The translations under genes were made by a program, and so were the position numbers. Positions 17,191 through 21,414 of a stretch of 64,000 bases of DNA are shown piece after piece. The DNA is from Spirochaetia bacterium (lineage in GTDB: Bacteria; Spirochaetota; Spirochaetia; DSM-2461). The stretch is from NCBI GenBank assembly GCA_963668315.1, contig OY764216.1, positions 672,001 to 736,000 of the forward strand, written 5' to 3'. Under the pieces are notes generated by a model, which was given only the letters and a program-made list of their open reading frames with translations, had not been told where the DNA came from and ran no database searches. Position 1 is the first letter of the stretch. Each line of letters begins with the position of its first letter.

Positions 17191-18459
17191 TTATTTATTT
17201 CTTATCAGAGACAAATCGCCCGTCTTAGCCGCTGCAAGAATGGGCCCCATAAAGGGGTCTACATCCTCCGCTTCCAGGGGAATGGGCATATTCTGCAGCT
17301 TCATCTTGAGCTGGGGGTCCTTCGCGGCAGCCAAAGCCCTCTCAATATACTTATCGCTGAACCCATCTACTTCGCCCAGAGTCAGGGGAAACCCGATTTT
17401 GCGGGAAAGACCGAACATGGCCCTGGCCGCTTCCAGGCCCAGCTCACGGCCGGAAAGACCGTCAAAATCAGCCTCGGAATAGCCGCACTCCCTGTAGAGA
17501 GAACCGATTTTCCTCAGGGAATCCTCCACTGCCGGAGCAAAGAATACGGTATAATAGGGATTCATCAAAGCACAGGCCCGGCCATGGCTCAGGAGGTCCA
17601 CAAGGGAGAAGCTGGTCAGGTGCCCCCCGTTCGTTCCTCCCACCATGATGGAGTAGCCACCAAGGTCCGTTGCCAGTCCGAGAGCTTCCCGGGCCCCGTA
17701 ATCCTCTCCGTTTTCCAATGCCTTGGGAAGATACTCGATAACCAGGCCGATGCAGGCCAGGGCGATCTCGAGACAGAGGTCATAATTATCCTTTCCGCTG
17801 GCACCGTAGAGAACTTCCAGGGAGTGGGACACCCCGTCCAGGGCGCCGTCCATGGTCAGGGAGGAAGGGGCTCCGCAGGTAACGGAATAGTCAAAAAAAG
17901 CGGCCTGGGGAACAATGGCCCCATCCACCACCAGTTTCTTCTGTCCCGTGGATACATCGGTGATGTTGGAGTATTTCGTCAGATGGGCCGCGCTGGAAGC
18001 CGCCGCCTGAATGGCGATATGGGGAGTGAGGGTTTTACCCGAAGCCGCCAGGGCCTCGGTAACTTTTCCCGTGCCGAAGTAATCCTCGATGGATCCGCCC
18101 AGCGTCCTCAGAACCTCGGCGGCTTTCACCAGATCGATGTTGCTGCCGCCGCCGAAGGTGATAAGCAGGTCCGGGTTTGCCTCGGTGATCGCTCTGGTGA
18201 TGCGGTCCAGATCCTCCCGCGGAGCGTTAGGCCTCCCTCCGGGGATTCTGGCCAGAAGCTTTACGCCGCCCTCTTCCAGGGCCGCCTCGATTTTGGCGAT
18301 CCATTCATCCGATCCGGAGAATCCGGAGTGGATCAGAACGGCCCGGCTGCCCAGTTTCGCGGCCGTTTCAGAGAGGCTGTCCAGGGCGTTTTTGCCATAT
18401 TTATATGAGTCACCCTTGAACTGCTTCAGCAGCGCGGCGGCTTTTTCTTTATTGGTCAT
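17191..18459 (-). CDS. Iron-containing alcohol dehydrogenase family protein
   Basis: FGGGSNIDLVK, ALDGVSHSLE, GGHLTS, LSHGRAC (metal-binding Asp/His positions). Confidence 0.88.
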   Translation of the reverse strand: MTNKEKAAALLKQFKGDSYKYGKNALDSLSETAAKLGSRAVLIHSGFSGSDEWIAKIEAALEEGGVKLLARIPGGRPNAPREDLDRITRAITEANPDLLITFGGGSNIDLVKAAEVLRTLGGSIEDYFGTGKVTEALAASGKTLTPHIAIQAAASSAAHLTKYSNITDVSTGQKKLVVDGAIVPQAAFFDYSVTCGAPSSLTMDGALDGVSHSLEVLYGASGKDNYDLCLEIALACIGLVIEYLPKALENGEDYGAREALGLATDLGGYSIMVGGTNGGHLTSFSLVDLLSHGRACALMNPYYTVFFAPAVEDSLRKIGSLYRECGYSEADFDGLSGRELGLEAARAMFGLSRKIGFPLTLGEVDGFSDKYIERALAAAKDPQLKMKLQNMPIPLEAEDVDPFMGPILAAAKTGDLSLIRNK

Positions 18460-18480
18460 CTATTCCATCCTTTAGGTCTG

Positions 18481-18500
18481 ATTGTCTTACAAAAGACAAT
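18481..18500. promoter_or_regulatory. Palindromic operator candidate upstream of the Fe-ADH gene
   Basis: ATTGTCTT-ACAA-AAGACAAT, perfect 8-bp arms, between the promoter and the SD. Confidence 0.5.
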
Positions 18501-18526
18501 TCCACCGTAAAATCAACGTTTCTTAA

Positions 18527-18555
18527 AGGATAGGCAGAATGGAGGGGAAAATCAA
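18527..18555 (-). promoter_or_regulatory. sigma70-type promoter of the Fe-ADH gene
   Basis: Minus strand: TTGATT-17 nt-TATCCT. Confidence 0.5.
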
Positions 18556-18585
18556 GCACAGCTTGTGTTTCAATCCCCGATATAC

Positions 18586-18623
18586 AAAAAAAGGGGGAGT
18601 CTCCCCGCAGGAAAACGCCCCCT
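18586..18623 (-). terminator. Intrinsic terminator right after the 12-codon mini-ORF
   Basis: Minus strand: AGGGGGCGTTTTCC-TGCG-GGGAGACTCCCCCT followed by TTTTTT. Confidence 0.7.
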
Positions 18624-18627
18624 CGTC

Positions 18628-18666
18628 CTAGAGGTTTTTCACCCCATAACTTTCAATATCAATCAC
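18628..18666 (-). CDS. Putative 12-aa peptide MIDIESYGVKNL
   Basis: SD AGGAGGTG (18671-78), GTG start, TAG stop, terminator 4 nt later, TATAAT at 18735-40 on the minus strand. Confidence 0.4.
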   Translation of the reverse strand: MIDIESYGVKNL

Positions 18667-18775
18667 AATACACCTCCTGTACTTGCCCGGGCCGGACCAA
18701 TTCCCGCCCTCGCTTTATTTACCGGTATGATCCCATTATAGGCCCCATCCTCCCTCCCCGAAAGGGAAAAAACGC

Positions 18776-18948
18776 TTCCTTTTGTTTTTTCACCGGGCAG
18801 TCCCCCCTGCCGGGGGGCCCCGCTTTCCGCTAAACTCCTCGTCCCGGGGACCTCCGGCCCTTCCCCTCCTTCACGGGCTCACTCCGTTCCGCCCTTCCCT
18901 CGGGCCGTTCCTGCGGGGTACCGCTTCAATCGGTACTGCAAAAAGGAA
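18776..18948. repeat. GC-rich multi-hairpin REP/MITE-like element
   Basis: Terminal IR TTCCTTTT/AAAAGGAA; internal stems C6/G6, CGGCCC/GGGCCG, GGGC/GCCC, GTACCG/CGGTAC; single copy in this window. Confidence 0.4.
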
Positions 18949-18980
18949 AGGGAATTTTCAAATTTAACAGATCTTTACCC

Positions 18981-19009
18981 TTTACAAATAATAAACACGG
19001 AACTAAACT
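18981..19009 (+). promoter_or_regulatory. sigma70-type promoter for the leader ORF and CD3324-family gene
   Basis: TTTACA-17 nt-TAAACT. Confidence 0.6.
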
Positions 19010-19041
19010 GTTCAGACATTACATCTCACCGGAGGTTTCAA

Positions 19042-19110
19042 ATGATTAAATACGATTATGTCGCATCAGCAGCACGGGTGCAGGAAATCTGCCGGACCGC
19101 AGGGGAGTAA
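19042..19110 (+). CDS. Putative 22-aa leader peptide MIKYDYVASAARVQEICRTAGE
   Basis: SD GGAGGT (19031-36) 5 nt before ATG; TAA at 19108-10; below the ORF-track size cutoff. Confidence 0.55.
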   Translation: MIKYDYVASAARVQEICRTAGE

Positions 19111-19213
19111 TTAAAACCTACCTCTCTCCTCATAGCAGTCCAGCAGAATCGGTAAACAGGTTCGATGACGGTTTGAACGAAGGAGTTCAAACGCACGCTA
19201 GCCCTTATGAGGA
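19101..19213 (+). promoter_or_regulatory. Candidate translational attenuator (alternative anti-SD and anti-anti-SD pairings)
   Basis: TCCTCATA(19127-34) pairs with TATGAGGA(19206-13, contains the SD); competing AGGGGAG(19101-07) pairs with CTCTCCT(19124-30); internal 8-bp hairpin GTTTGAAC/GTTCAAAC. Confidence 0.5.
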
Positions 19214-19221
19214 AACAAACC

Positions 19222-19512
19222 ATGTCATATCTAAAAGCGGAAGAGTGTCTTCCCGTAGAATTGGTTAAAGAAATACAGAAATATATTCAGGGTTCCCAGA
19301 TCTATATTCCCAGAATCGAGCAGTCACGCCTTTCCTGGGGAGAGAAGAACGGAACGAGAGATAAGATACGCGCCAGGAACGAGGACATCCGTCAGCTCAA
19401 AAGAGAGGGATGGACGATAAACGGCCTGGCCGACGAATACAATCTATCACCGGACAGCATCAGGAAGATTCTCTACTGCAGCAAAGAGACCCGGGAACGC
19501 AAAGCCAGTTGA
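19222..19512 (+). CDS. CD3324-family (Mor-like HTH) protein
   Basis: MSYLKAEECLPVELVKEIQKYIQGSQIYIPR...WGEKNG...RNEDI...LADEYNLSPDSIRKILY; SD GAGGA. An alternative ATG lies at 19207. Confidence 0.85.
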   Translation: MSYLKAEECLPVELVKEIQKYIQGSQIYIPRIEQSRLSWGEKNGTRDKIRARNEDIRQLKREGWTINGLADEYNLSPDSIRKILYCSKETRERKAS

Positions 19513-19544
19513 GATGAGCCGGGTAATCCGGCTCTCTCCGGTGA

Positions 19545-19573
19545 TTGATAATCCCCCCTTCCCCCCGTATAAT
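19545..19573 (+). promoter_or_regulatory. sigma70 promoter, leaderless chorismate mutase
   Basis: TTGATA-17 nt-TATAAT-6 nt-ATG(19580). Confidence 0.7.
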
Positions 19574-19579
19574 GGTGTT

Positions 19580-19855
19580 ATGAAAAAACTTCTCGAACTC
19601 CGCGAATCCCTGGACAGAATTGACCAGAATCTCATAGAACTGATTGCCGAACGTTTCCGCATAACCGGGGAAGTCGGCCTTCTGAAGAAAAAGGAAAATC
19701 TGCCCTCCACCGATCCCGAAAGGGAATCAAGGCAGATGGAACGGATCTCTCAAATTGCCTCTGACGCGGGTCTGGACCCTGAAATCGCCCGGAAGATCCT
19801 ACGCCTTCTTATCGACGAAGCGGTCAGAAATCACGACAGGATCAAGAAATCCTAG
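19580..19855 (+). CDS. Stand-alone chorismate mutase (AroQ/CM_2)
   Basis: LRESLDRIDQNLIELIAERF...VGLLKK...DPERE. Confidence 0.88.
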   Translation: MKKLLELRESLDRIDQNLIELIAERFRITGEVGLLKKKENLPSTDPERESRQMERISQIASDAGLDPEIARKILRLLIDEAVRNHDRIKKS

Positions 19856-19989
19856 GCAAAATATTTCAACATTCCATTTGATTTTCTTCTCCCGATATGG
19901 TATTATGAAAAGATTTAGACTGGAAAAGCGATAATTATCGGTAGTGAGAGCTTTTCCCATTATAGAATAAAGTTTACCGAGGAGAAAAA

Positions 19990-21414
19990 GTGGTAAAAAA
20001 AGACTTCCCCCTTGTTCACTACTATGACCAGGATTTTGTTGATATATATGAGCGTTCCTGGGTGTGGCTGAGCGATTTCCTGAACAAGGGCACAGCAGCA
20101 AACGGATTCGGTCCTTTCTATTTCAAGTATCCCGAAGGAACGACTATTAATTTATTCGAGACCTACATGGCCTCCTTCTTTCTCGTCTATAACAGCCGGA
20201 ACTTTCCCGTCTCCAACATCTTAGACATCTTCTACATGAAACAGGAGGAGAATGGCGCCATACGTTGCGAATACGACGATGAGACAGGAAAACCGGTTAC
20301 ATCCGATGACAATCCCGAAGGGCTATGCCCTCCTCTCTTTGCCTGGGTTGAATACAACCTCTATCATAAGGTAGGAGCTAAAAAGCGCATCAAAGAGGTC
20401 ATGCCCAGACTGGAAAAGTATTACGAGTGGATCGAGGAGAACTGGAAGGATGAAGCTTCCGGCTTCTATAAGGTGCCCCTTTCCGCCACCATGATGGGAG
20501 ATTCTCCCCGAGGCGATAGCGTCTATTTCGTGGATTTCAACGCCCAGATGGCGGTCAACTCCCTTTATATGGCAGCTCTCGGCGACGTTCTGAATGACAA
20601 GGAACTAAGCTTTAAATATAAAAAGAAATATTTTTCCCTTAAAACCCGTATCTCCAGCAAAATGTGGGATAAGGACGACTGCTTCTATTATGACCTGGAC
20701 GAGAACCTCGAACCGGTTAAATTGAAGACCATCGCCGCCTACTGGCCCCTTCTGGCAGAGATCCCCAACGAAGAGAGAGCCGAAGCCATCATCGCTCACC
20801 TGAGAGATCCCGAACTCTTCGGCGGTCCCAACCCCTTTCCCACGGTGGCGATCAACGAACCCTGCTTCAAGGAAGAGGGAGACGGCTGCAACGGATCGGT
20901 CTATCCCGCCTTTACTTTTATGGTAATCAAGGCTCTGGAAAAATACGGCAAATACGAAATGTCCCGTGAAATGTCCATTAAGCATATTTATTCCATTCTG
21001 GACACCTTCCATCCGGTAAGCGGCAAAAAGGGAACCCTGTGGGAAGCCTACGCCCCTCTGACAGACGGACCGGCCAAGATCAACGGCGGGCTTGATGACA
21101 ACAGGAAACTCTATCTGGGATGCACCGGCCTTTCCACCATCGCTCTGATGATAGAGAATGTCATCGGCCTCTATATCAGTCTTCCCAGAAAAACGGTAGA
21201 CTGGATTGTTCCCACCCTCGAGGTCATGGGAATCGAAGATCTGAACCTGAAACGGAACAAAATTACCATTCTCAGCAACAAGAGCGGAAGAGGCTGGGAA
21301 ATCCGCCTTGAATCGGAAAAACTCTACTATTTTACCATCGATATTCTGGGGGAAAAGAAAAAAACCCTCCCCATTCCTTCGGGTAAATGTTCGATGCTTA
21401 TTGATAAGCTGTAA
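19990..21414 (+). CDS. Trehalase/GH63-like (alpha/alpha)6 glycoside hydrolase
   Basis: PPLFAW, MGDSPR, VDFNAQM, MWD..CFYYD, GSVYP, LWEAY; SD AGGAG with GTG start. Confidence 0.75.
   Translation: MVKKDFPLVHYYDQDFVDIYERSWVWLSDFLNKGTAANGFGPFYFKYPEGTTINLFETYMASFFLVYNSRNFPVSNILDIFYMKQEENGAIRCEYDDETGKPVTSDDNPEGLCPPLFAWVEYNLYHKVGAKKRIKEVMPRLEKYYEWIEENWKDEASGFYKVPLSATMMGDSPRGDSVYFVDFNAQMAVNSLYMAALGDVLNDKELSFKYKKKYFSLKTRISSKMWDKDDCFYYDLDENLEPVKLKTIAAYWPLLAEIPNEERAEAIIAHLRDPELFGGPNPFPTVAINEPCFKEEGDGCNGSVYPAFTFMVIKALEKYGKYEMSREMSIKHIYSILDTFHPVSGKKGTLWEAYAPLTDGPAKINGGLDDNRKLYLGCTGLSTIALMIENVIGLYISLPRKTVDWIVPTLEVMGIEDLNLKRNKITILSNKSGRGWEIRLESEKLYYFTIDILGEKKKTLPIPSGKCSMLIDKL

Follow-up and report, generated by a model that had tools for sequence, protein, structure and literature searches.

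What does the long 5′ leader in front of a CD3324-family regulator gene do, and which promoters might the regulator read? The locus lies in a 64,000-nt stretch of Spirochaetia bacterium contig OY764216.1 (the window, in whose coordinates positions are given below), and a preliminary description made from the sequence alone had proposed that the leader is a translational attenuator. Comparison of related loci leads us to consider rather probable a two-tier circuit, in which a translational attenuator would gate a Mor/C-like activator of a translation-stress regulon. The first tier, the attenuator, is very probable; the second, which casts the regulator as a Mor/C-like activator with a 31-bp box as its binding site, is likely if the first mainly holds. 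The box, its candidate regulon and a divergent RNA carrying a mini-ORF are new here, and the box and the RNA were missing from the preliminary description.

A Conserved Upstream ORF Precedes CD3324-Family Genes

The leader and regulator are preceded by a σ70-type promoter (18981..19009, + strand; TTTACA and TAAACT separated by 17 nt, 9/12 consensus), whose -35 element is invariant in 4/4 aligned close relatives. Downstream of it, a strong Shine–Dalgarno (SD) sequence (19032..19037, +; -10.7 kcal/mol), with a GGAGG that is invariant in 8/8 aligned sequences, precedes a 22-codon leader ORF (uORF; 19042..19110, +), the proposed sensor, which is separated from the ATG of the regulator gene (19222) by a spacer of 111 nt. 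The coordinates previously given for the promoter, SD, ORF, spacer and three pairing arms were all correct. The ATG at 19207, which had been put forward as an alternative start of the regulator, was ruled out: it is not conserved, and it is out of frame with the regulator gene in two relatives (L002 and L004) and therefore belongs to the SD arm. A terminator scan called no terminator-like site on the + strand of the leader (19010-19222), and neither the leader nor the divergent RNA matched an Rfam 15 family at gathering score (best E 0.19 in window positions 18400-20100; 0 matches in 20 of 80 related loci).

In the comparison that the preliminary description had proposed, a uORF is a conserved feature upstream of CD3324 homologues. 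A uORF of at least 8 codons, with an SD energy of -7 or below and within 300 nt, was found at 86/90 family loci and at 136/571 control genes (those ordinary genes in this genome whose gap is at least 250 nt); at an SD energy of -9 or below, the numbers were 80/90 and 64/571. The picks at four family loci (L019, L031, L040 and L041) are probably unrelated ORFs. The set of 90 comprises 80 related loci, nine further spirochaete loci and the window. Outside it stand L100 (unparsed), the locus of the window itself, seven loci that duplicate L001-L007, and L083 and L085, near copies of L082 and L084, both of which are without a qualifying uORF. A uORF was also present in 68/72 held-out metagenome loci, after 8 of 80 had been dropped for short flanks.

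The position of the uORF is conserved and its peptide sequence is not: the peptides differ among relatives, while the RNA under the second half of the uORF is conserved, and such residues as are conserved coincide with paired RNA. A conserved drug-specific arrest sequence of the ermC/cat subtype is absent from these leaders, in which peptides differ and frames shift among relatives, so that no specific arrest motif is shown. The first 12 codons are of broad composition with no dominant residue in 86 uORFs, and no runs of single residues were seen, which rules out an amino-acid attenuator of the trp/his/leu type.

Some members depart from this pattern. At the more distant spirochaete loci L082-L085 and L087 the leader is shorter and folds into other hairpins, its SD signals are weak or far away, and the divergent RNA is lacking. 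At L031, L040, L041 and L042 the regulator gene overlaps the next gene (for MutS2 or an RNHCP-domain protein) by 8 nt, and the leader looks different.

Mutually Exclusive Helices Cover the uORF and the Regulator's SD

Two helices compete for one arm of the leader. In the ON hairpin (19088..19147, +), the last seven uORF codons (19088-19107) are paired with an anti-SD arm (19124-19147) through 18 bp, with interruptions, at -26.6 kcal/mol. In the OFF helix (19127..19213, +), the anti-SD (19127-34) pairs with positions 19206-13, inside which the regulator's SD lies, and encloses a variable hairpin (19171-19192) that is absent from L004, L005 and L007. The SD-blocking pairing is thus as first described, and it is conserved in relatives. 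The competing pairing at 19101-07 is real as well, but the 7 bp originally assigned to it are the inner part of the 18-bp ON hairpin; as a duplex this short helix has -10.2 kcal/mol, compared with -15.3 for the anti-SD:SD duplex. The folding energy of the leader as a whole lies within chance (z = -1.41; 22/200 shuffles fold as well), and the case therefore rests on comparison among loci.

Folding of the window's leader with a modelled ribosome masking part of the uORF gave the position-dependent switch that the preliminary description had predicted. The probability of the SD-blocking pair is at most 0.36 with the ribosome at codons 1-13, 0.89 at codon 14 and 0.66 at codon 15; once codon 16 is reached it stays at 0.95-0.99 as far as the stop. 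The ribosome-position logic is thus supported, in the model and in relatives, with one change: it is passage of codon ~15, and not arrival at the stop, that the OFF state needs. The effect in the window is modest, the cost of opening the SD site rising from 3.6-5.7 to 7.0-8.5 kcal/mol past the switch point, and in the modelled ON state the regulator's SD is only 26-42% open.

The same switch was modelled across 59 leaders (86 minus 27 that were near-duplicates or shorter than 16 codons), among which kin are not independent. Its median was 2.7 kcal/mol, compared with 0.25 when the uORF was shuffled, and it exceeded 1 kcal/mol in 48/59 leaders versus 8/59 shuffled controls, at codon positions chosen after an earlier fold analysis had been seen. 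The other 11 leaders shift by 1 kcal/mol or less, one of them in the wrong direction. Both states could be seen by eye in 11/17 spirochaete-type leaders of differing sequence, L006 keeping them around an insertion of ~110 nt in the loop of the ON hairpin; six (L003, L086, L092, L097, L099 and L139) gave no clear two-state picture. The first 39 nt were held open in these 17 folds, and the start of the ON hairpin there is for this reason not independent evidence.

The covarying anti-SD stems that the preliminary description had envisaged were seen in Firmicutes, whose leaders have an extra upstream helix that competes with the ON helix. In 33 sequences, three helices are 93-99% paired; two helices, at 99.4% and 94.5%, carry two-sided changes at 5/10 and 7/16 pairs, most of which track the split between Clostridia and Bacilli. 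None of 500 shuffles scored as high on cells paired or on covariation.

The ON arm begins 42 or 45 nt from the uORF start in 47 of the 64 leaders that have this arm, and the reading frame over it varies in five of the 64. Such a spacing would suit ribosomes that are halted within about ten codons of the start. The naked spirochaete leader RNA is predicted from the folds to be in the ON state, unlike that of ermC, in which the untranslated RNA state differs from ON. Judged by comparison, then, the leader is a real, conserved attenuator, and it probably triggers an undescribed activator regulon.

The Regulator May Resemble Mor and C of Phage Mu

The gene behind the leader (19222..19512, +) encodes a helix-turn-helix (HTH) protein of 96 aa, the proposed activator, and its assignment to the CD3324 family was borne out by a match to NF040785 (99.8 bits versus a cut-off of 65, model positions 1-82 of 82). 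It is present as a single copy in the 5.6-Mb genome, and its closest named relatives belong to Spirochaetaceae MAGs (89-93% protein identity). The Mor/C model PF08765 was missed at gathering score (22.7 bits, E 1e-4, cut-off 24.9); a paralogue at L013 passes it with 35 bits, and the nearest Atlas clusters of the regulator are mostly PF08765. The structure model (pLDDT 84) has a C-terminal HTH. The best structural neighbours of the C-terminal half are Mor and C of phage Mu, C standing first (Z 6.1, rmsd 3.8, 52 aligned) and Mor fifth (Z 5.6, rmsd 3.8, 50 aligned), with middling Z values that tie with DeoR-type and other HTH domains and with the N-terminal part barely covered. A Foldseek search with the model gave no match at E ≤ 0.001, and a sequence search of solved structures at E < 0.1 returned only a designed repeat protein. 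There was no WhiB match in Pfam or NCBIfam, and the protein has no conserved cysteines.

Mor binds just upstream of a poor -35 element, at a site of ~16 bp. In contrast to Mor and C, the regulator is chromosomal, leader-controlled and about 90 aa long, and the box described below is about twice as long as the Mor site.

The regulator was found in 20/401 genomes of this class and in 76/118 scored Clostridiaceae genomes, with up to 11 copies each; clostridial paralogues stand partly in tandem, as at L013. Bacillus subtilis carries a member, which we take to be yraL. A literature search that covered little of the subscription literature found no description of the CD3324 family, its leader or its box, although supplements could list the leader. 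The names yraL and yraK are absent from the text of PMC13689557 and from one supplement of PMC11761127, and "3324" is absent from the text of 10.1101/2020.08.10.244764, in whose supplements 17 premature-termination events could bear on novelty.

A 31-bp Box Adjoins Weak -35 Elements

Independent motif searches in 20 clostridial and in 13 bacillar regions, picked by eye behind the terminator of the regulator gene, each brought up a 31-bp motif. It is pseudo-palindromic and AT-rich, and in these regions it always ends at a weak -35 element, with a -10 element at 17-18 nt. The bacillar and clostridial boxes are one motif in opposite orientations: when the clostridial matrix is reversed, it gives the bacillar sites a score of 0.54, compared with -34.1 ± 2.8 after shuffling (0/2000 as high). 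The box precedes fusB in Bacilli; in Clostridia it faces the other way and stands before genes for GNAT, rRNA-methylase and ABC proteins. Of 77 proteins found downstream of regulators, 55 were scanned, and these included 18 FusB-family and 11 GNAT proteins, the remainder comprising SpoU methylase, ABC, beta-lactamase-fold, RidA-like and MutS2 proteins among others; hydrolase and YhbY genes are also among the candidate targets. A box score of at least 12 bits was obtained behind 28/71 held-out loci versus none in reversed sequence. At the own promoters of Firmicutes regulators the box is absent (best ≤ 4.2 bits). In five Bacillus cereus-group loci (L055, L061, L068, L069 and L080), the leader is kept and followed by a YetF/DUF421 gene without the box.

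In 121 Clostridiaceae genomes, a box pattern that included no -10 element gave 38 matches versus 5 for a control pattern. Matches occurred in 18/76 genomes with the regulator and 2/42 without it, three genomes being unscored for the regulator and two of the positive genomes having supplied training sites. Of thirty matches inspected in their context, 28 fall between genes, and in 25 a -10-like hexamer follows after a spacer of 17-18. Seventeen of these 25 lie away from any CD3324 gene, in front of 11 GNAT genes, 2 SpoU methylase genes and single genes for beta-lactamase-fold, SnoaL and EEP-family proteins and one unassigned gene. The pattern was met in 0/28 single-copy and 18/48 multi-copy genomes, the latter also being larger; the box may for this reason belong to one paralogue group, and since single-copy clostridial genomes lack it, other boxes probably exist.

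Two candidate boxes lie near the regulator in the window. One (18764..18794, -) adjoins the -35 of a divergent promoter. A matrix made from Firmicutes sites only, combined with a -10 term, places it first in the genome; without that term it comes 43rd of 5.6 million. A spirochaete matrix places it second, and it had been spotted by eye before the Firmicutes-matrix scan. The other (18950..18980, +) adjoins the regulator's own -35, 155 bp from the divergent promoter and its box (18794-18735). It ranks first with the spirochaete matrix, a result that is partly circular with close kin in the training set, and 984th with the Firmicutes matrix; autoregulation is possible on this arrangement. The spirochaete matrix was built from 27 of 29 promoter sites from related loci, the window excluded. 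Its ranks 1-6 are the own promoter, the divergent promoter and the promoters of genes for an MsbA-like ABC exporter, YhbY, transaldolase and a ribosomal-protection-like ABC-F protein, and these six sites score at least 23 bits, a value that no site reached with any of 30 column-shuffled matrices.

Orthologues were compared in small and partly related sets of genomes. The box stands before the ABC-F orthologue in 4/4 genomes with the regulator (22.8-35.9) and 0/2 without (-1.5 and 10.2); the site at the ABC-F promoter of G000 spans C1:1780448-1780478. The comparison is less sharp for the ABC exporter (26.4, 20.6 and 11.9 with the regulator versus 8.4, 5.9 and 0.4 without), and at yhbY the box is present in 2/8 genomes with the regulator and 0/21 without. 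This low yhbY count and the transaldolase at rank 5 are weak points of the second tier. The ABC-F protein itself scores 280 bits against NF000355, below the cut-off of 380. In 4/4 regulator-bearing genomes, the ABC-F gene has below its box promoter a uORF of 3-5 codons with a Met-Ile-Asp start and a structured leader (G000:C1:1780302-1780420, -; L257-L260), which may be a second layer of control; the Met-Ile-Asp start is common to many mini-ORFs. Box arrangement varies among spirochaete loci: at L097, L099, L139 and L140 a single box is shared by both divergent promoters, back to back, and L004, L005, L006 and L093 have two boxes in tandem.

Could the attenuator be real and the box be read by another factor, or be a conserved promoter flank (UP-like or an extended -35) that travels with gene cassettes? 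The AT-richness of the box would suit such a flank, and since many of the unlinked targets have homologues among the linked ones, gene and promoter could have travelled together. The box is also absent from 58/76 regulator-bearing clostridial genomes, at a pattern sensitivity of 43/74 known sites, and a genome in which no regulator was found nevertheless has one good site (L233). A flank would not, on the other hand, allow the motif to be reversed between Bacilli and Clostridia before unrelated genes; the Firmicutes matrix puts the promoter beside the regulator at the top in a spirochaete genome; and the box tracks the regulator at ABC-F orthologues. We consider this explanation fairly improbable, and continue with the box as the putative binding site of the regulator.

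The Proposed Circuit and Its Relation to Known Systems

In the proposed circuit, ribosomes would load on the strong SD of the uORF, which is presumably translated, and those passing codon ~15 would melt the ON hairpin, upon which the freed anti-SD arm would pair over the regulator's SD and turn its synthesis off. When initiation or early elongation is slowed, as by ribosome-targeting drugs, the ON hairpin would persist and the regulator would be made; in this way the leader may respond to antibiotics. The regulator would then bind the pseudo-palindromic box just upstream of weak -35 elements. We infer activation from where the box sits, from the weakness of the -35 hexamers and from the way the leader would operate. 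In this genome the targets would be the regulator's own promoter, the divergent RNA, the ABC-F gene and the ABC exporter gene; in Bacilli, fusB; in Clostridia, GNAT, rRNA-methylase and ABC genes. Such activation might confer resistance.

The sign of regulation is not readable from sequence, and a protein that binds the box and represses was considered together with a circuit that senses general slowing of translation (in starvation, cold or stationary phase) and not drugs. The box lies upstream of poor -35 hexamers and not over them, as expected for an activator, and if stalling led to the synthesis of a repressor, fusB and ABC-F genes would be silenced just when they are needed. General slowing fits the lack of a dominant residue in the first 12 uORF codons, the shifting frame of the ON arm and the presence of RidA-like, hydrolase and YhbY genes among the targets; the whiB7 uORF, too, senses amino-acid starvation according to 10.1101/2023.06.02.543512. 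A general-slowing sensor is compatible with the two-tier circuit and differs from it only in the natural signal. Repression or a non-drug signal together appear quite improbable to us, and the circuit is compared below as a drug-responsive activator system.

Descriptions of inducible resistance to ribosome drugs in Firmicutes usually deal with single genes, each under its own leader; a global activator gated by a sensor is known from Actinobacteria, namely WhiB7. WhiB proteins are Fe-S proteins, and WblC reportedly controls intrinsic resistance to translation-targeting drugs. vmlR-type leaders are said to place antibiotic-resistance ABC-F genes under uORF-based control. Here, too, uORF control appears tied to ABC-F ribosome protection, the ABC-F gene having its own uORF; but vmlR-type leaders act in cis on one gene, whereas a trans-acting activator is proposed on top here.

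For whiB7, 10.1101/2023.06.02.543512 describes a uORF of variable sequence that senses translation stress and gates a small transcription activator, which feeds back positively on its own promoter. As in WhiB7/WblC, a variable-sequence uORF would here gate a small transcription activator, and feedback is proposed; the own-promoter box that suggests it is found in spirochaetes and not in Firmicutes, and the regulon here is a candidate one, drawn from motif and context. WhiB7 is gated by a rho-independent terminator, whereas here the scan called none in the leader and the OFF helix covers the SD; and a Mor/C-like HTH protein without a cysteine cluster, in other phyla and with a 31-bp box, takes the place of the Fe-S WhiB protein. 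By analogy, the circuit may work like that of WhiB7/WblC with another protein fold, having neither the Fe-S protein nor the terminator of the WhiB7 type.

With the ermC, cat and toiL attenuators the leader shares a uORF with its own SD and mutually exclusive helices over uORF and SD, so that the position of the ribosome on the leader ORF would choose between an SD-blocking and an SD-freeing helix. Their output is a resistance enzyme or toxin, whereas here it is a regulator; the spirochaete leader is three-armed with a predicted untranslated ON state, the Firmicutes form adds its upstream helix, and the arrest peptide of ermC and cat has no conserved counterpart. In PMC12121999, toiL is reported to answer to at least five drug classes.

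If true, the two-tier circuit would provide a function, a binding site and targets for the widespread and unstudied CD3324 family, and with a member in B. subtilis it could be tested at once. It names candidate resistance genes by their promoter (tandem GNATs, SpoU methylases, and FusB and ABC-F homologues). Rather unlikely, and offered as a tentative extension, is a family-wide reading in which CD3324 proteins, gated by a ribosome-sensing leader, are unrecognised WhiB7-like master activators of an inducible defence against translation inhibitors in Bacilli, Clostridia and spirochaetes, with separate regulons for paralogues and with the spirochaete mini-mRNA as the most conserved target, acting on ribosomes by its translation (as a decoy, by drug ejection or in feedback).

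A Divergent RNA with a Mini-ORF

The divergent box precedes a predicted promoter (18735..18763, -) with a poor -35 (18763-18758), a 17-nt spacer and a consensus -10 (18740-18735). The RNA of ~150 nt that would start there consists, in order, of an A-rich stretch, a hairpin, a near-perfect SD (18671..18678, -; GGAGGT invariant in 12/12 aligned), a 12-codon mini-ORF with a GTG start (18628..18666, -), at the end of which the final codons fold into a small hairpin that reaches to the stop, and an intrinsic-terminator-like hairpin with a U tract (18586..18624, -), a similar hairpin being found in folded relatives. In 15 relatives the mini-ORF has 10-12 codons and a stop 0-2 nt behind the hairpin, while the peptide varies, which argues for translation.

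The RNA stands opposite the regulator in 11/13 spirochaete loci examined and in all four of the held-out spirochaete-like loci whose flanks were long enough, three of them recognised by the model and one by eye; in L004, L006, L007 and L093 a convergent gene ends behind it, so that it stands alone. A model of the RNA that contained no base pairs (R1) gave 8 strong matches in 38 family genomes; these are its own training set, and only its negatives count: among 29 family genomes that lack the regulator it gave no strong match, the one exception in kind being a match at E 0.002, and it gave no strong match either in G151, which has the regulator. A fixed-spacing pattern run on 401 genomes carries no information, since it failed to pick up even the copies already known.

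A translated decoy or feedback RNA, in which the act of translation matters, has a slightly less than even chance of being the right reading. A peptide effector is unlikely, and an orphaned ABC-F-type leader and some other function are, each to the same degree, more improbable still. Macrolide-ejecting mini-peptides are described in PMC2928234 as very short ORFs that act by translation, with 4-6 residues required. The mini-ORF resembles them in being very short and in that translation rather than product could matter, and differs in having 10-12 codons. A mini-mRNA whose translation itself acts on ribosomes would, if true, be a kind of effector not described before; in any case, the analysis exposes a conserved mini-ORF RNA outside known families.

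The RNA also enters into a further explanation of the leader, namely that it is an autogenous operator whose structure is flipped by the regulator protein or by the divergent small RNA, the uORF only keeping the default state. The RNA over the helices is indeed better conserved than the peptide, and the SD of the small RNA could pair with the anti-SD arm. Pairing in trans was nevertheless rejected, cognate small RNA-leader pairs being no stronger than non-cognate ones (-23.6 versus -22.2 ± 3.2 kcal/mol, a comparison into which the window entered with a wrong fragment); 88 other loci, mostly of Firmicutes, keep the leader, and no small RNA was found there; and a ribosome footprint would account for the constant spacing between the uORF start and the ON arm. 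We regard an autogenous operator as very improbable. Chance pairing in an ordinary 5′ region, for which the unremarkable folding z-score and the uORFs of control genes at the looser SD threshold might speak, is hardly credible and already contradicted by a uORF and both helices conserved in spirochaetes, Clostridia and Bacilli with compensatory changes.

Surroundings of the Locus

The regulator gene is followed by a GC-rich hairpin (19517..19535, +), which is the probable end of the regulator transcript, the terminator scan being negative there (no U tract). The chorismate mutase gene behind it (19545-19855, +) has its own promoter (19545-19573) and follows the regulator only in the three closest relatives, and attenuation of this gene by the leader was rejected on both grounds. 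In the window, L001 and L002, its start lies 6-7 nt behind the -10 hexamer, a spacing that suggests a leaderless mRNA.

Between the two divergent promoters lies a GC-rich palindromic insert (18806-18945) with a weak match to Flavo-1 (E 0.19). It is shared with L001, has one other, distant copy in the genome and is absent in L002, whose boxes sit close together. On the other side, a gene for an iron-containing alcohol dehydrogenase that falls into no assigned subfamily (17191-18459, -) lies behind the terminator of the mini-ORF RNA, a neighbour shared only with L001 and L002.
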